Origin: Planctomycetota bacterium
Lineage (GTDB): Bacteria > Planctomycetota > B15-G4 > SIAN01
DNA: 64,000 nucleotides
Direction: 5' to 3'
Assembly: GCA_031409275.1 (NCBI GenBank)
Contig: JANNXA010000030.1
Coordinates: 4,702-68,701 of the forward strand
Shown: positions 1-7,265 of the stretch, one piece after another
Position numbering within the stretch: the stretch's first letter is position 1
How the letters are laid out: the number at the start of each line of letters is the position of its first letter
Position numbers and translations under genes: made by a program
Notes under the pieces: generated by a model
What the model was told of the DNA's origin: nothing
The model's input: only the letters and a program-made list of their open reading frames with translations
Database searches by the model: none

Positions 1-699
1 CGGGTGCTTGGCGGCCTCTTCCCACAGCTGACGTGCCTCGAAGGCGGCCGCAAGCCCGGCGCCACGCGCCAGCAGCAACGTGGTCGCTTCGGCGGTCACG
101 AAGCTCGAAGCCGCGATCGCCGACTGCCACGCCGGAAGTCGCCGCTCGGCGTCTTGCAGCGCGCGCATCAGCTCGGCCTGCCATTCCAGGCGCCAGCGGC
201 CAAGCGAATGCGCCACCATGAGCGCGCCCGCCAGCGCAATGCCGCTGTACATGAGCACCGACACGTTGAAGTCGAACGGCGCGCCGATCGTCAACGTCGT
301 GCCGCAGTGGCGCGCGACCGGCGACTCCGCATCGTTCGTGATGGCGATCGTCACGCACTGGGCCGCGCGCGCCTTCTGCACCAGCTCGACCACCTCGACG
401 CTACGACCGCTGCGCGAAAGGAAGAGCAGCGTGCCGCGTGGCGGAAGCGGCGCGAAGTGGAGCAGTTCGCCGGCGTCGGCGTTGCGCGCCGGGCGTCCCG
501 CCGCATCGCACAGCGCCTGCAAGGCATGCCCGCCGTGGTAGCTCGAACCCATCCCCGCGAACCACGGGCAGGCGGCGGCGCGCAGGAGCTCGGCGCCGCT
601 CGCGATCGCGTCGGCCTGGGGCGGCCGCATCAGGTTCGCGAGGAGTTCCTGAAGGCGGCGCGGCTCGGCGAGGACGTCCTGCAGGTAGCGCGAACTCAT
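1..699 (-). CDS. SIS-domain sugar isomerase/aminotransferase-like protein (partial, runs off the window start)
   Basis: Not in the ORF track. Manual translation from ATG 699 gives MSSRYLQDVLAEPRRL...FAGMGSSYH...LFLSRSGRSVEVV...IAITNDAESPVA, which has the SIS motifs GxGSS, SxSGxS and ITN..SP. Its start overlaps the upstream stop (TGATG). Confidence 0.85.
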   Translation of the reverse strand, partial: MSSRYLQDVLAEPRRLQELLANLMRPPQADAIASGAELLRAAACPWFAGMGSSYHGGHALQALCDAAGRPARNADAGELLHFAPLPPRGTLLFLSRSGRSVEVVELVQKARAAQCVTIAITNDAESPVARHCGTTLTIGAPFDFNVSVLMYSGIALAGALMVAHSLGRWRLEWQAELMRALQDAERRLPAWQSAIAASSFVTAEATTLLLARGAGLAAAFEARQLWEEAAKHP

Positions 700-1901
700 C
701 ACGTCCCTTCGTCGGCGAGTGCTTCGCCGCGCACCCGCGTCACCTCGCGCGCGAGCGCCGCGCGAAACTCGCCGAGATCGAAGCCGAATGGCCCGGGCTC
801 CGAACGGTAGGCGACGTTGCCGTCGGCGTCGATCAGCACCAGACGATCGGGCCACGCCTCGTAGGCACGATCGGCATCGTCCTCGAGCGTGTCGATGACC
901 GCCGGGATCGCATCGAGCCCGAGCGCCTGCTTGCAGTGGCGAGCGTTGGCGCACCGCTCATCGAGGGTTTGCGGCTCTTCCATGATCGTTCCGTCCGGAG
1001 TCGCCATCGGCCAGCTCGAGTCGACCGCATGCGCCTCGCGCAGATAGACCAGCCAGAAATCGACCGCTCGACTCGCGACCCGTTCAAGGTCACTCAGCCG
1101 ACCGGCTGAGCGGCTGAACGGGCCTCAGGTGAAGCTGCCGAAGATCAGCGCCATCGGTTTGCCGCGGCGCAGCTCGCTCAACCGCACCGGCGCGAGATCC
1201 TCGAGGCGCAACGCGGGGAAGTCGGGCGCCGGCTCGCGCTGGCCGTGCTCGATCCAGCCGACCTGCAACGGCGCGAGGCCCGGCATCCGCTCGCGCAGTT
1301 CGAGCATGCCGTCGCCCTGCGCATCGCGGCGCTCGAGCCACTGCGCGATCTCGGTTCGCGAGAGCAGTCGATCGCGGTCGGCGTCCATGCCGGCCAGCAG
1401 CGTGCCGAACCCGTCGACTCCGGGCGGCGCACCGCGTGCCAGCACCTCGTTGAACTCGGCGACGTCGACGCGACCGTCGCCATCACGATCGAGGCCGGCG
1501 AGCGCGGCGATCAGCGGTTCGATCGGCACGGAGGCCGCCTTCGCCCCACCCGCGAATCGAACCAGCAGGAGCGGAATGCCGAAGTCGGGCGGCAGCGCGC
1601 CATCGAGCGCGAAGTCTGCTTCGGATACGGCGCCGTCGCGATCGCGGTCGAGCTGCCCGAAGGGAGCGTCGCCGCGCGGATACTCGCCGCGCTCGATGCG
1701 GCCATCCTGGTCGGCGTCGTAGCGCTTCGCGAGTTCCTGCCACGCCTCGTGTCGATGAAGTCGATGCTCGGCAAGCGGGTCGCGCGTCGGCTCGGTCGGC
1801 GCGGGCGCGGAAGGCGTGCTGCAACCCCATAGAGCGACGGTCACGAGCGCCATCCACGAGATCCTCGTGCGAGGCGCGATCGAGCGTCGTTCACCATCCA
1901 T
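699..1901 (-). CDS. EF-hand + iodothyronine deiodinase-like lipoprotein, putative selenoprotein (in-frame UGA at 1125-1127, ~400 aa)
   Basis: ORFs 1125-1943 and 699-1007 share a frame. Reading through UGA gives KPMALIFGSFT-U-GPF...FWLVYLREAH...AVIDTLEDDADRAYEAWPDRLVLID, the deiodinase/thioredoxin-fold motifs. Five DxDxDG-type EF-hand loops and a lipobox-like LWGC are present. Start codon uncertain. Confidence 0.85.
1092..1111 (-). promoter_or_regulatory. Putative bacterial SECIS element
   Basis: mRNA reads UGA, then 13-14 nt, then (G)CUCAGCC-GGUC-GGCUGAG(U): a perfect 7-bp stem with a G-first, GU-containing apical loop. Confidence 0.75.
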
Positions 1902-1976: not shown

Positions 1977-4274
1977 TCAGTTCCGCGGCCGGAGGCGCAG
2001 CAATTCGCCTCCGACGACGGTCGGCGCTTCCACGAGCGGCGGGACCGGCCCGATGTCGGGCGTGCGATAGAAGGAGCCGTCGGGCAGCGTCAACGCGTCG
2101 GCTTGCGCCGGATCGAGACCGGGTGGAATCGACCCCGCCGGCAGCAGGAGCAGTTCGCGCTCGATCGTCTTCACCACGTAGCCGCTTCCGAGCGGCCCGA
2201 GAGCGACGCCGTCCGCGAGGCTGAAGATCGGCGCGTCGTGGTCGGGCTGGCCGTCGATGTCGGTGTCGACCGGCTGGTACGGGATGCCGAAGAGCTGGCC
2301 ATCGCCGCGGTACTCGAGCAGGAACTGGACGCCGTCGTAGGTGCTGTCGCCGTTGGCGTCATTCGCCGTCGAGTGCGTGTAGGGAAACTGCAACGGCGCA
2401 TCGAGGACGAGGGTGGCACCCGTCGAGTCGGTGAGGCCGAACCACCAGTTCCATTCGTTGGCGCCGGTCTCCCACACGTAGTAGGTGGCTGCGTCGAAGA
2501 TCTCCTCGTTGGTCTGCAACGAGGTGGTGTCGACCACCAGAGGTCCGCTGCGCATGCCTTTGACGAACGGGCCGCTGGCGGGAATTTCGCCATTGGCGAG
2601 GCCGACCGGCGAGAGCTGCTGGAAGGTGTCGAGCGTGCGCAGCGTCCGATCGGCGCGATCGAAGACGTAGGTGTACGGTGACCCCGGATTGTTCGCCGGC
2701 GGAAAGAAGACGTCGCCCGCTTCCGCTTCGAGCGCCGTGATCCCGGGCCGGAGCGCGTCGAGCAGCGCATAGAGGTTCAGCGTGCTCTGCGCTTTGAACA
2801 GCGAGTCGTCACCGCTCACGACTCGTTCGGTGTACCACGACAGGTCGGGCGAGCCGAGTCGCACCGCGCAGTTGCCGCCGAAGCGCTTCGAGCGCAGCCG
2901 CAGCACGAACCAGGCGTCGAGCGGCACCGCAAACGGCGAGATCGGCGTGAAGGCGCCGGCGACCGGATCGAAGATCTCGACGGCGATGAAGTCGACACCG
3001 TCGCAGACCAGGCGATACGTGACGGGCCCATTGCTCTGCGGGGTCCACGGTTCGTCCCATTCGAAGATCGTGCCGGCGAGCGTCGAGATCGGCGTCGTGT
3101 TGCGAGTCAGCTCGATCAGCCGGCCGGGCGCGACGCGCAGTTCGAGCGGCTTGGGGTCGAGCCCGCCGCCCGGCAGCTCTTCCTGCGCGAACTCGCCGTC
3201 CACGACGATCTCACCGTTCGGGCGGTGCAGTCCGTAGTAGTCGAGGAATGCCTGCGAGCCGCTTTCGAGGCGGATCGGCACGCCGGTCCGCAGTCGAACG
3301 CGCTCGCCGAGGGTCCCGAGACGCGCGTCATCGACGTAGAGGTTGTAGCGCAGGCTGCAACTGCCGAAGGCGTCGCGCTGCAGCGCAACGACGGGTCCCT
3401 GGTCCTCCTGCCGCACCAGCGTCGTCGCATCGAACGCCAGCCGGACCAGCTTGGGGACGACGCCGCTGTCGCCGTTGAAAGGGTCGTTGCGGCGTTCGAG
3501 ACGCGAGATGGCCGCGAAGCCGCTCGACTGGTCGACGGCAAGGTCGACGCGCACCTGCGTCAGCTCGTGGTGGTCGCCCACCAACGGCAGCTGGCCGAGA
3601 TCCCCGCGCAGGAAGAAGAGGTCGTAGCCGAATCGTCCAACGACCGGCGGCCGCGTCGCGATGAGCCCGCAGTACTGCGCGTCCTTCGGGTTGCCGTTCT
3701 GCGCCGTGCCGGCGAAGTTCATGTGGAAGGCGCCGAACGGATTCGAGGCCGTCGGAGCCGCGAAGACGTCGAGGCGCGAGAAGAGCGTCGTGGGCGGCAG
3801 CAGACCGCCGCCTTCTTCCTGCGTCGGAACCCAGAACTCGACGCGTTGCGGATCCTGGATCGTCGGACGCAAGCTCCGCACGATCCACTCTTCGAGCTGG
3901 CGCCCGCCGCCCGCCTGGTTCAACGGACCACCGCCGGTCGCGCACAAGCCCGGGTCGATCTGCGCGAGGTAGAGGCCGTCGTTGGTGAGCGCCTCGTAGC
4001 GCGACTGCGCCAGCAGGCAGAGGACCTCGTTCACTTTCTCGATCTGCTTCAGCGCCCCGTCGTAGACGAACTGGTGGACGCCGTCGGTGAAGTACTCGGC
4101 ATCCGCCGGGAACTGCGACACGCCAAGCGTATGGAGCGACGCCGCCACGAGGTCGGGATCGGCGGTCACGACCGAGACACTCGGTGGAGCGATGAGACCT
4201 TCGATGCTCCCGTTCGGATCGGTCGGTGCGCAGCCTGCCAGCGCGAGCAGCAGCCCGAGCACGAACGGGGTCAT
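1977..4274 (-). CDS. Large uncharacterised lipoprotein (~765 aa)
   Basis: Signal MTPFVLGLLLALAGC (lipobox) followed by a globular, beta-rich sequence. The ORF-track extension to 5378 is antisense to the porin gene. Confidence 0.7.
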   Translation of the reverse strand: MTPFVLGLLLALAGCAPTDPNGSIEGLIAPPSVSVVTADPDLVAASLHTLGVSQFPADAEYFTDGVHQFVYDGALKQIEKVNEVLCLLAQSRYEALTNDGLYLAQIDPGLCATGGGPLNQAGGGRQLEEWIVRSLRPTIQDPQRVEFWVPTQEEGGGLLPPTTLFSRLDVFAAPTASNPFGAFHMNFAGTAQNGNPKDAQYCGLIATRPPVVGRFGYDLFFLRGDLGQLPLVGDHHELTQVRVDLAVDQSSGFAAISRLERRNDPFNGDSGVVPKLVRLAFDATTLVRQEDQGPVVALQRDAFGSCSLRYNLYVDDARLGTLGERVRLRTGVPIRLESGSQAFLDYYGLHRPNGEIVVDGEFAQEELPGGGLDPKPLELRVAPGRLIELTRNTTPISTLAGTIFEWDEPWTPQSNGPVTYRLVCDGVDFIAVEIFDPVAGAFTPISPFAVPLDAWFVLRLRSKRFGGNCAVRLGSPDLSWYTERVVSGDDSLFKAQSTLNLYALLDALRPGITALEAEAGDVFFPPANNPGSPYTYVFDRADRTLRTLDTFQQLSPVGLANGEIPASGPFVKGMRSGPLVVDTTSLQTNEEIFDAATYYVWETGANEWNWWFGLTDSTGATLVLDAPLQFPYTHSTANDANGDSTYDGVQFLLEYRGDGQLFGIPYQPVDTDIDGQPDHDAPIFSLADGVALGPLGSGYVVKTIERELLLLPAGSIPPGLDPAQADALTLPDGSFYRTPDIGPVPPLVEAPTVVGGELLRLRPRN

Positions 4275-4457
4275 TAGACGAACGGCGAATCGCGCCCACG
4301 CGGCGACGGCGGCGCTGGCCTGCGGAGCTTCGGTCACGGCGTCTCTCCTCGGGCTTCCTGAAGCCCCGATCGACACCTGAAGCGCTCCTGGTTGAGTCTG
4401 AAGCGCAAGTTCTTCGCGATCCGCGTCGATATCGCGGAGGAGACCCAGGAGATGTGC

Positions 4458-5903
4458 ATGAGGATCGGATCGATCGCGCTCGCAGGAGCGTTGGTGGCGA
4501 CATCGGCTCGCGGGCAGTCCGCCGGCGATGCCGACGCCGTTCAACGCATCGAGCGGCGCATGCGCGAGCTCGAGCGCGCCTGGCGCCTCGAACCGGCGGC
4601 AGGTGCCACCATCGCGGAGCGTGCGCTCTTCGACTGGGGCGGGTCGATCGGCTTCTCGCTGTACGGCATCGACGACGCCGAGAGCAAATCGCACACGTTG
4701 CGTCAGACCGACGCGCGCGCCTGGACGAAGGTGGAACTCGACGGTCGCCATCGCTTCTTCGCTCGGCTCAAGCTGCGTTACGACGACTGGAACGCGGGCG
4801 ACGACTTCGACGGGCAGGGAGACGACCTGCGCGAGCCGATCGGTGAACGCTGGTGGTACGAGTTCGATGCTGCCGGCAGCGCCGCGGCGGCCGACGGGTG
4901 GAACCTGAACGCCCGCGTCGGCAAGCAGCACCTCGAGATCGGCAACGGCGTGGCGCTGTCGGCGACGCTCATCGGCGCGCGGGTCGAGCTGTCGCTCGGG
5001 AGCTTCGTGCTCGGCGTGCTGGCGGCGGACACCCCGGCCAACGACTTCGTCGACTTCGACGCCTCGCGCCCGAGCTTCGACACCAACACCAAGCGCCGCT
5101 TCCTCGCCGCGACGCTCGAACGGCGCGGTGGCGCGGTGACGCCATTCGCCCACGTGGTGCGTCAGATCGATCGCAACGATCGCGACTTCGCCACGTTCCA
5201 GGACGGGCTCGGTCAGCTCTACGACACTTCGTTCGACTACGACTCGACCTACTTCGGCGCCGGCGCGCGCGGGCCGCTCGGGGAGCAATCGACGTGGCGC
5301 GTCGAGCTCGACCTCGAGTCGGGCCGCGCGCTGTCGAGCCCGATCAGCGCCGCGGGCGCGCCGACCACGCAATCGCACGAGTCGATCGATGCGTTCGCGC
5401 TGGCCGGCGGTGCCTCGTGGATGTTCGGCGACGCGCGAGCGAGCCGCGTCGACCTCGACTTCGTCGTGGCTTCAGGCGACTCCGATCGACTCGACTCCGC
5501 CGACACCTTCGCCGGCAACGTCACCGGCAGCGTCGATCGCGCGTGGAACGGGTTCGGATTCCTGGACACCGGCATCGCGCTGGCGCCCGACCCGAGCAAC
5601 CTCGCGACGCTCGAACTCGCGCTCGAGACCTCGCCCTTCTCGGGCGACGAGAGCTGGCGGCGACTGCGTGCGCTGGCGAGCCTCTACCTCTTCGGGAAGC
5701 TCGATCCCGACGCGCCGATCAACCTGCCGACCGTAGACAAGCGCTTCGTCGGCGCCGAACTCGACATCGGCTGCGAATGGAACATCCGCTCCGACCTGAC
5801 CTTCTCGATGCGTTACGGCCTCTTCATGCCGGGCAGCGCGATGCCGCCGGGCGAGGACGGCTCGCGCCAGATCCTCTACGGAGGGGTGACCTATGCGTTT
5901 TGA
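4458..5903 (+). CDS. Outer-membrane beta-barrel protein (alginate-export/porin-like)
   Basis: AGGAG RBS at 4447-4451, signal peptide, alternating amphipathic strands, C-terminal GGVTYAF (terminal Phe). Confidence 0.7.
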   Translation: MRIGSIALAGALVATSARGQSAGDADAVQRIERRMRELERAWRLEPAAGATIAERALFDWGGSIGFSLYGIDDAESKSHTLRQTDARAWTKVELDGRHRFFARLKLRYDDWNAGDDFDGQGDDLREPIGERWWYEFDAAGSAAAADGWNLNARVGKQHLEIGNGVALSATLIGARVELSLGSFVLGVLAADTPANDFVDFDASRPSFDTNTKRRFLAATLERRGGAVTPFAHVVRQIDRNDRDFATFQDGLGQLYDTSFDYDSTYFGAGARGPLGEQSTWRVELDLESGRALSSPISAAGAPTTQSHESIDAFALAGGASWMFGDARASRVDLDFVVASGDSDRLDSADTFAGNVTGSVDRAWNGFGFLDTGIALAPDPSNLATLELALETSPFSGDESWRRLRALASLYLFGKLDPDAPINLPTVDKRFVGAELDIGCEWNIRSDLTFSMRYGLFMPGSAMPPGEDGSRQILYGGVTYAF

Positions 5904-6414
5904 AGTCGTGGCCGCCACGCTGCTGTTGACGTGGTGCGGCGCGGGCTGCGGCTCGCCGCCTCGTCTCGGTCGGACGCTGCTCGCGCAACCATCGATGGTC
6001 GCCGACGAGCTCGCGTTCTGGCAGGCGCTCGAGGGCGAAGCGCGCGTCACGAACGACGACGCGTTGCACGGGCTGCTGTTGCTGGCCGATGGCAGCGATG
6101 CGCATGCGAGCTTCGCGGCGCGCGTAGTCACCGCGCAGGCACGCGGGTGGATCGCGCCCGACGCGGCGCTCGATGCCGATGGCGTGGCGAGTGTCGGCAT
6201 GGTCAGCGTTGCCGTCTGTGATCTGCTGGCGCTGGAGGGCGGGGTGACGCGCCGATTCGCCCCGAAGTCGCCGCGCTACTGCACCCGCGAGCTCGTCTTT
6301 CGCGGGCTGCTGCCGGAGCGCACTGCGCAGCAGGGAATGCGTGGACTCGAACTCATCGACCTGGCCGGCCGCGTCGAGGACGCGCGCCTGGCGATGGCGG
6401 GAGAAAAGTCGTGA
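5893..6414 (+). CDS. Hypothetical lipoprotein
   Basis: Hydrophobic N-terminus with GAGC lipobox; overlaps both neighbours as in an operon. Confidence 0.65.
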   Translation: MRFEVVAATLLLTWCGAGCGSPPRLGRTLLAQPSMVADELAFWQALEGEARVTNDDALHGLLLLADGSDAHASFAARVVTAQARGWIAPDAALDADGVASVGMVSVAVCDLLALEGGVTRRFAPKSPRYCTRELVFRGLLPERTAQQGMRGLELIDLAGRVEDARLAMAGEKS

Positions 6415-7265
6415 TGGCCCTCCTCGCCACGCTCCTGACCGTGCTCGCGTCGCACAGCGCACAGGGCGCTCCGCCGACACCAGCACCAACGCCCACCACA
6501 CCGACCACGCCGGTCGTTGCACCGGTCGTTGCACCGCTTCCGCAAGGACCACCGCAGAAGCTGCAGGCTCTGGTGATCGACGTCGATGGCCGATCGGAGT
6601 GGCGCGCCGCCGGGGCTGAGAAGTGGAACGTCGCGGCGGTGAACGACCTCCTCGATGCCGGGTGCGAGATCCGGACCGGGCTGCGGTCGACGCTGGCCTT
6701 GCGCGTCGGCAAGAACGCGACGCTGCTGGTCGCGCGATCGAGCCGCATCGAGCTGCCGGTGATCGTGCAGGACGGCGAGGTGCTGCGCACGCGGGCCGCC
6801 GTCTATCGCGGCAAATGCGACTTCAAGGTCGAGGCGGTCGGCGTCACCAGCGACTTCCAGGTGTTGACGCCTTCCGCGACGCTGGCCGTACGCGGTACGG
6901 GCTTCTGCGTGGAATGGGGCGCGCTCGCCGGACTCGAAGTGACCGGCGTCGACACCAATCGCATTCGCGCGATCGAGGTGAGCTACGCCGAATCGCAGCA
7001 CGCCGTCTTCGTCTCCGGCGGCGGCAGCACCACGTCTCAGCTACCCGAACCGGTGCAGGTCGCGCTCTTCCACACCGTCTTCCCGCCGCCGAGCCCCGAT
7101 CGTCAAGTGCGGGACGATCGCCGCGACCCGAACGGTCGTCCGCCGCTGCCGCCGTTCCATCAGGACTTCCGACGCCAGCAACAGACTCACCATGGCGGCA
7201 GCGACATCGGGAAGGACGTCAACAGCGGCCAAGGCTCGCCCGGGATTCCACCCGTGCACGGGTAG
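6411..7265 (+). CDS. FecR-domain secreted protein
   Basis: Signal peptide, Pro/Thr linker, then EIRTGLRS...FQVLTPSATLAVRGTGF, the typical FecR TPxAxxxVRGTxF motif. Confidence 0.8.
   Translation: MMALLATLLTVLASHSAQGAPPTPAPTPTTPTTPVVAPVVAPLPQGPPQKLQALVIDVDGRSEWRAAGAEKWNVAAVNDLLDAGCEIRTGLRSTLALRVGKNATLLVARSSRIELPVIVQDGEVLRTRAAVYRGKCDFKVEAVGVTSDFQVLTPSATLAVRGTGFCVEWGALAGLEVTGVDTNRIRAIEVSYAESQHAVFVSGGGSTTSQLPEPVQVALFHTVFPPPSPDRQVRDDRRDPNGRPPLPPFHQDFRRQQQTHHGGSDIGKDVNSGQGSPGIPPVHG

Follow-up and report, generated by a model that had tools for sequence, protein, structure and literature searches.

Gene organization and selenocysteine decoding

The DNA analysed (the window) was a stretch of 64,000 nucleotides (nt) from a Planctomycetota bacterium, contig JANNXA010000030.1 of assembly GCA_031409275.1, positions 4,702 to 68,701. 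On the minus strand of the window, nt 699–1901 constituted a single gene of 400 codons, with selenocysteine (Sec) counted, which was interrupted in frame by a TGA at nt 1125–1127. The predicted start codon, ATG at nt 1899–1901, had GGAGAG on its 5′ side and coincided with the point at which the alignment of orthologs begins, and the gene ended with a TGA at nt 699–701. Translation of nt 699–1943 with TGA read as U gave one open frame with a single internal TGA, corresponding to residue 259 (FGSFT-U-GPF) in the context ALIFGSFT-U-GPFSR and followed by 141 further open codons that contained YLREAH and AYEAWPDRLVLID. The predicted protein consisted of three parts, a signal peptide, five EF-hand-type loops and a C-terminal T4_deiodinase domain. 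An earlier note on this DNA, made from its letters alone, had described the internal TGA and the two sequences beyond it as parts of a hidden selenoprotein; the minus strand reads as described. Gene callers break the gene off at the UGA, and the word-index homologue search, the sensitivity of which was low here, recovered from the databases only N-terminal pieces of 242 and 262 amino acids (aa). No full-length cysteine form was returned when the deiodinase part was used in the same type of protein search, for which the word index was too insensitive.

The TGA was retained in nearly all copies of the gene. In the source genome and 40 relatives, one in-frame TGA was present in 20 of 20 matches that span the Sec column; on translation, every one of the 20 had it within the same motif. 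Two of these copies looked damaged (L022 in genome G040 and L026 in genome G027), with an extra in-frame TAG soon after the Sec codon in one and a frameshift of the domain in the other, which may reflect decay or assembly errors. A scan of species-representative genomes yielded 80 loci, most of which bore record titles of Planctomycetota and two of Acidobacteria; the 81 domain copies at these loci had TGA (79 copies) or TGC (2 copies) at the Sec column. Part of these loci came from the same genomes as the set of 40 relatives, so that some copies are counted in both sets. When the phylum was sampled evenly, PF00837 matches with E ≤ 1e-10 were found in 33 of 101 genomes, and 47 of the 48 matches carried one in-frame TGA, while no match at this threshold was obtained in 14 control genomes.

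A hairpin with the loop GGUC and a perfectly paired stem of 7 bp (CUCAGCC-GGUC-GGCUGAG, nt 1093–1110) was found to begin 14 nt downstream of the TGA; it encodes S-A-G-R-L and represents the core of a bacterial selenocysteine insertion sequence (SECIS). In the minimum free energy structure, this core lay within an extended stem (nt 1077–1124) particular to this genome, the outer helix not being conserved, as ortholog folds differ outside the core hairpin. The local fold of 76 nt had a free energy of -42.5 kcal/mol versus -29.2 ± 2.8 kcal/mol for shuffled sequences (z = -4.7). The core hairpin was almost invariant among 16 close orthologs. When 78 distinct sequences were compared, 87.5% of the cells were paired and five of the seven pairs changed on both sides; cells with double changes numbered 34 as compared to 10.2 ± 2.5 in shuffles, none of 500 shuffles reached the observed value, and controls slid along the sequence were all far lower than the true position. 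In some lineages the encoded peptide was altered while the pair persisted, as in CGG to CAG (Arg to Gln) and GCC to GTC (Ala to Val). The Gly codon of the loop was GGT in 72 of the 78 sequences, whereas among 446 Gly codons from the rest of these genes its share was 9.2%. Since the hairpin covaries and its loop codon is fixed as a rare one, the peptide A-G-R-L, invariant in the ortholog alignment, is at least in part an imprint of the RNA, and this SECIS illustrates cleanly how an RNA structure can impose on a gene both a conserved peptide motif (S-A-G-R-L) and an infrequent codon. No Rfam family was found for the hairpin, the best match having an E-value of 0.77, far under its gathering score. 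According to the available text of PMC1088965, a bacterial SECIS is recognised as a hairpin that closely follows the UGA and has a G in its small apical loop, and both its position and its loop G place the hairpin of the window in this class. The clean SECIS announced in the earlier note was thus corroborated, with covariation as additional evidence. Dozens of genomes share the TGA, the frame downstream and the hairpin, which is more than chance would give.

The source genome (5.59 Mb in 55 contigs, 92.9% complete) contained a tRNA-Sec (76 bits; called SeC with anticodon tca by ARAGORN) as well as genes for SelA (410.8 bits), the winged-helix domain of SelB (63.9 bits) and SelD (338.5 bits), so the machinery on which the earlier note had made its reading depend is present. 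The selD and selA genes adjoined each other (G000:C40:252211-254324; L009 and L011), and selD had an in-frame TGA of its own, suggesting that SelD is probably a selenoprotein as well. A gene for a SelB-like elongation factor (GTAGHIDHGKT...) adjoined the deiodinase-like gene in 5 of the 80 loci, for example at L104:152-2284.

On these sequence data, the UGA at nt 1125–1127 is read as a Sec codon and the gene as a genuine selenoprotein gene. Were the TGA an ordinary stop, the locus would encode a 258-residue EF-hand lipoprotein followed by a separate or dead fragment, the remains of a pseudogene or a split gene; gene callers do end there, the two N-terminal fragments are all that is on record, and the true terminator of the gene is likewise TGA. 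However, the frame beyond the TGA stays open and is conserved at 36–71% identity across 10 orthologs, a stop would split the Pfam domain at its active site, the two copies that lack TGA at this column have TGC instead, the hairpin covaries, and the Sec machinery is encoded in the genome, all of which make this explanation extremely improbable. Hardly more credible is a UGA that a near-cognate tRNA or an altered genetic code would translate as Trp or Cys, for which a W at the column in four library representatives might be cited, although these probably derive from a translation table with TGA as Trp: TGA is the terminator of this gene and, among the 12 orthologs with a stop codon in reach (the window copy included), of 9, so that these genomes otherwise use it as an ordinary stop; a tRNA dedicated to Sec is encoded along with SelA, SelB and SelD; and the hairpin fits the bacterial SECIS as far as the available text of PMC1088965 describes it.

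Deiodinase-like domain and its relatives

The C-terminal domain, of the thioredoxin fold and deiodinase-like, covered about residues 223–385 (nt 747–1235, minus strand). It matched the Pfam model T4_deiodinase (PF00837) with 81.3 bits against a cut-off of 27 (E = 8.4e-23), and the match ran across the TGA (residues 237–399 in the numbering of P0001, in which the Sec is U273). With a profile built from 11 orthologs, the best matches among solved structures were mouse Dio3 (4tr3, 8.6e-25) and Dio2 (9h48, 2.7e-22), with FGSxT-C/U-xPF and YIxEAH lining up in both. An AlphaFold (AF2) model was obtained with a mean predicted local distance difference test score (pLDDT) of 83 and a predicted template modelling score (pTM) of 0.79, low confidence being confined to the signal peptide. 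When this predicted model was searched with Foldseek, the same two structures ranked first and second (4tr3, TM score 0.81, E = 4.8e-13; 9h48, TM score 0.79, E = 1.1e-10); ResA, TlpA-like lipoproteins and peroxiredoxins came next (TM scores of about 0.75–0.83 on the target). Residues 287–312, without regular structure in the model, corresponded to the deiodinase-type insertion after the second strand. The readthrough protein therefore does align across the UGA with the deiodinase family and its thioredoxin fold, a point on which the earlier note had been prepared to give up its claim, and the hidden Markov model (HMM) search that it had proposed placed both the T4_deiodinase and the EF-hand models above their cut-offs.

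As described in the available part of PMC12025243, the substrate of Dio3 is clamped by His202 and Arg275, of which His202 holds the phenolic OH of the hormone, and protons are relayed through His219, Glu200 and Ser167. In the profile alignment with 4tr3, residues Ser167, Thr169, Sec170, Tyr197, Glu200 and His202 of Dio3 were kept in the window protein, the Ser at -3 and the Thr at -1 from the Sec, and Glu259 was conserved as Asp. The motif Y-L-R-E-A-H (nt 1029–1046) aligned with Tyr197, Glu200 and His202, and both FGSxT-U/C-xPF and Y-x-x-E-A-H were invariant in the orthologs. Dio3 His219 and Arg275, however, aligned with Pro, in the profile consensus and the window protein alike, and an Arg preceded G-P in only 1 of 11 domain sequences inspected for the Arg275 position. 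Because the clamp Arg and the relay His are both replaced, the features for binding thyronines appear incomplete and a thyronine substrate is unlikely.

Differences were also seen around the redox residues. Dio3 Cys168 was replaced by Phe, while Dio2 has Ala at this position (FGSAT-C-PPF in 9h48). No Cys aligned with Dio3 Cys239; the bacterial Cys323 (nt 933–935), a candidate resolving cysteine, sits seven positions earlier and was present in 11 of 11 orthologs, 80 of 81 genomic copies and 105 of 139 library representatives. The residue after the Sec was Gly in 8 of the 81 copies, all of one clade, and Pro in 72, as in animal deiodinases, with U-Q in a single copy. The earlier note had remarked on the missing proximal Cys and the missing Pro after U; both are indeed absent from the window protein, but they do not amount to an oddity, as the first state is shared with Dio2 and the second is a substitution at the level of a clade, and judged from these alignments neither signals a new chemistry. 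At the place where animal deiodinases carry their N-terminal transmembrane anchor, the window protein has a signal peptide and the EF-hand domain.

The domain family is large. When the domain profile was run with HMMER against 1.84 billion representatives, 5666 matches reached E ≤ 0.001, of which 246 had E ≤ 1e-30. Among the best 150 of the 5666, 139 covered the Sec column, with Cys in 124, Ser in 7, Trp in 4, Ala in 2, Leu in 1 and Asp in 1, the remaining 11 being fragments that start past this column; together with the genomic copies (TGA or TGC), these supply the Sec/Cys alignment that the earlier note had called for. A set of 138 sequences (137 representatives and the query, two long ones having been left out) was scanned against domain libraries, and matches were obtained to T4_deiodinase in 138, the NCBIfam model NF038285 ('deiodinase family protein', deiodinase_rel, a hypothetical equivalog) in 138, AhpC-TSA in 128, Redoxin in 110 (E ≤ 0.001) and EF-hand_1 in 45.

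Two variant arrangements were observed among the genomic loci. In genome G003, two copies of the gene stood in tandem (L015:50-1219 and L015:1480-2691). A separate TGA and hairpin were present in each, and no signal peptide was evident in the upstream one. Four loci (L028 to L031, in G011, G020, G014 and G017, respectively) encoded a more distant Sec form with IMSSYT-U-PPF in frames of about 580–640 aa, the sequence of which downstream of the UGA differed from that of the window gene.

Bacterial deiodinase-like proteins of both Sec and Cys type were reported in 2005, when a redox function was suggested (PMC1088965, available text), and a fusion of EF-hands to a deiodinase-like selenoprotein is shown in Fig. 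2B of a 2021 study within a survey of Global Ocean Sampling (GOS) metagenomes (PMC9402790, available text). The window protein resembles that fusion in having a T4_deiodinase domain with Sec, a bacterial SECIS inside the coding region, an N-terminal EF-hand domain of the PF13499 type and an extra conserved Cys, a likeness of description that may or may not extend to membership of the same clade. Two reviews, one of them of 2026, give in the parts available UxxC as the motif of the family and place it among selenoproteins known from bioinformatics only (PMC9312934, PMC13188914), whereas the window protein has U-G-P-F and the wider clade U-P-P-F. The literature search returned no paper tying the deiodinase-like family to Planctomycetota. 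The statement of the earlier note that such proteins are known but uncharacterised agrees with the published record as found, but novelty was overstated, the fusion type having been published already (PMC1088965, PMC9402790, as far as their available text goes). The gene is thus a genuine member of a known selenoprotein family, and its kind is not new; the lipoprotein signal, the prevalence in Planctomycetota and the SECIS analysis are what is added here to the published EF-hand fusion. Among bacterial proteins, this family stands nearest to the thyroid-hormone deiodinases.

N-terminal region and neighbouring genes

The signal peptide (nt 1821–1901, minus strand) ended in a lipobox-like A-L-W-G-C with Cys27, and 9 of the 11 aligned orthologs had a Cys in the same place. 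The bacterial lipobox follows the pattern [LVI][ASTVI][GAS]-C. The N-terminus, MDGERRSIAPRTRISWMALVTVALWG-C, resembled a lipoprotein signal, although Trp before Gly is atypical for a lipobox; in the ortholog alignment, the window protein had L-W-G-C, with Trp at -2, and several orthologs had I-G-C or A-G-C. Judged from these features, the protein is probably exported and lipid-anchored. A Tat (twin-arginine translocation) signal was set aside, as the R-R of the window protein did not occur in the orthologs.

The EF-hand region (residues 62–204, nt 1290–1718) contained five 12-residue loops starting at residues 62, 85, 138, 173 and 193. Four of these matched D-x-[DNS]-x-[DNSG]-x6-[ED] and the fifth had Gln at position 3. 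The best Pfam match was to EF-hand_1 (6.1e-12, 44.6 bits against a cut-off of 25.4), followed by EF-hand_7 (37.3 bits against 30), and EF-hand_6 and EF-hand_5 also exceeded their cut-offs. With the profile of the 11 orthologs, calmodulin chains scored about 1e-9 for the N-terminal half, and the Asp and Glu residues of the loops were invariant in the ortholog alignment. At least three EF-hand-like loops lay upstream in the same frame in 63 of the 81 genomic copies, 7 of the 81 being cut by the end of the locus. Of the lipobox and five EF-hand loops ascribed to this region by the earlier note, the loops therefore stand, four of them canonical, and the signal is lipoprotein-like, with Trp at -2. 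Two candidate relationships of the loops were rejected. For a lanthanide site of the lanmodulin type, the score was 19.6 bits against a cut-off of 135 and the loops had no Pro at position 2, a feature of lanmodulin EF-hands; the match to XopAW (34.3 against 120 bits) reflected shared EF-hand similarity only.

Downstream of the selenoprotein gene lay a gene for a SIS-domain protein (nt 1–699, minus strand), the ATG of which overlaps the selenoprotein stop by one base. Upstream was a gene for a predicted lipoprotein of 765 aa (nt 1980–4274, minus strand) that starts with MTPFVLGLLLALAGC and had no Pfam match with E ≤ 0.001; three close relatives have it in the corresponding place, ahead of their own selenoprotein gene. 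Beyond it, on the plus strand, were genes for an alginate-export-like outer-membrane protein (porin; nt 4392–5900) and a FecR-domain protein (nt 6411–7262). The SIS-domain and lipoprotein genes recurred beside the selenoprotein gene in close kin only, and no cluster of neighbouring genes was present in more than 6 of the 80 loci; neighbouring genes were therefore rejected as a lead to function.

Possible function and rival readings

The evidence points, with good confidence, to an exported, probably lipid-anchored 'deiodinase-like' protein in the Sec form that has an N-terminal EF-hand domain and most likely works through a cycle of the peroxiredoxin/deiodinase type. In such a cycle, the selenolate, located at the N-terminal end of helix alpha-1, would attack an electrophilic atom of a small substrate to give Se-OH or Se-X, Cys323 or an external thiol would resolve the oxidised selenium to Se-S, and an envelope thiol system would reduce the Se-S bond. 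The peroxiredoxin-like character of the cycle is suggested by the distal Cys in 80 of 81 copies and by the AhpC-TSA and Redoxin matches of most of the 138 sequences scanned, and its assignment to a selenol-based reductase of the envelope by the fold and the conserved residues. ResA, TlpA/Etrx lipoproteins and Bcp/Tpx are comparable in their envelope location and in a redox residue placed where helix alpha-1 begins. ResA/TlpA-type reductases and peroxiredoxins carry CxxC or PxxxTxxC motifs, whereas the window protein has a single Sec and the deiodinase-type insertion. More likely than a switch, the EF-hand domain would be a calcium-loaded module, structural or serving as a lid over the substrate, within an envelope rich in calcium.

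As to the substrate, a peroxide or another oxidant/thiol-redox compound is the tentative first choice, an aryl halide undergoing dehalogenation is a lesser possibility, and something other than these two is about as doubtful. The redox substrate is ranked only slightly above the aryl halide, since a dehalogenase stays in play through the conservation of His202 and the almost exclusive use of Sec.

Several observations weigh against this reading or parts of it. Lipid anchoring is called into question by the Trp at -2 and by the orthologs, 2 of 11 of which are without the Cys and some of which apparently have a signal-peptidase-I site. Covariation of the hairpin was not above that of shuffles when confined to the 16 close orthologs, where 130 of 500 shuffles reached the observed pairing. 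The C-terminal 163 residues matched positions 179–341 of the 347 positions of NF038285, but the score of 179.4 bits was under the cut-off of 250 and the N-terminal half of the model was poorly matched, so that the window protein is a relative of this family and not an equivalog. For the Pfam model Redoxin (PF08534), the window protein itself was under the cut-off (21.1 versus 26.6 bits). The retained His202 favours a phenolic substrate over peroxide, the neighbour clusters of the 80 loci gave no hint that would support any substrate, and the literature search found no assay of a bacterial deiodinase-like member.

The strongest rival is the one preferred in the earlier note, a calcium-switched reductive dehalogenase anchored in the envelope, which would act on iodinated or brominated phenolics by forming a halogen bond to selenium, passing through an Se-X intermediate and being recycled by thiols. 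By both sequence and fold, the nearest solved proteins are Dio3 and Dio2, ahead of the peroxiredoxin and TlpA folds; the active-site residues Ser, Thr, Sec, Tyr, Glu and His of Dio3 all recur in the window protein, the His that holds the phenolic OH among them, and Glu259 is kept as Asp. The persistence of Sec in 79 of 81 copies, with one TGA in 47 of 48 matches of the phylum sample, also fits a chemistry that requires selenium. On the other hand, Arg275 and His219 are not kept, no halogen-related genes were found as neighbours in the 80 loci, and no activity data were found in print. Calcium is normally not limiting in the cell envelope, which makes a switch unlikely; switching is the weakest part of the earlier reading, and it is simpler to assume a domain that is loaded with calcium and has a structural role. 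Taken as a whole, the calcium-switched dehalogenase is doubtful, and the redox reading set out above is preferred.

A wider form of the dehalogenase idea, less probable still, would have calcium-dependent selenoenzymes of the planctomycete envelope stripping iodine or bromine from natural halogenated phenolics, such as algal bromophenols and iodotyrosine-type compounds, with Sec kept for the selenium halogen bond and the halogen chemistry of animal deiodinases inherited from a widespread bacterial dehalogenase.

For the window alone, the result is a correct yet ordinary repair of an annotation. For the phylum, the family is common (one third of the sampled genomes, 33 of 101), nearly all copies have Sec, and automatic annotation still splits this common selenoprotein, leaving N-terminal fragments alone on record. 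An assay of one member would bear on whether deiodinase chemistry predates animals; if the wider idea were true, the halogen chemistry of the thyroid-hormone deiodinases of animals would descend from a widespread bacterial dehalogenase.

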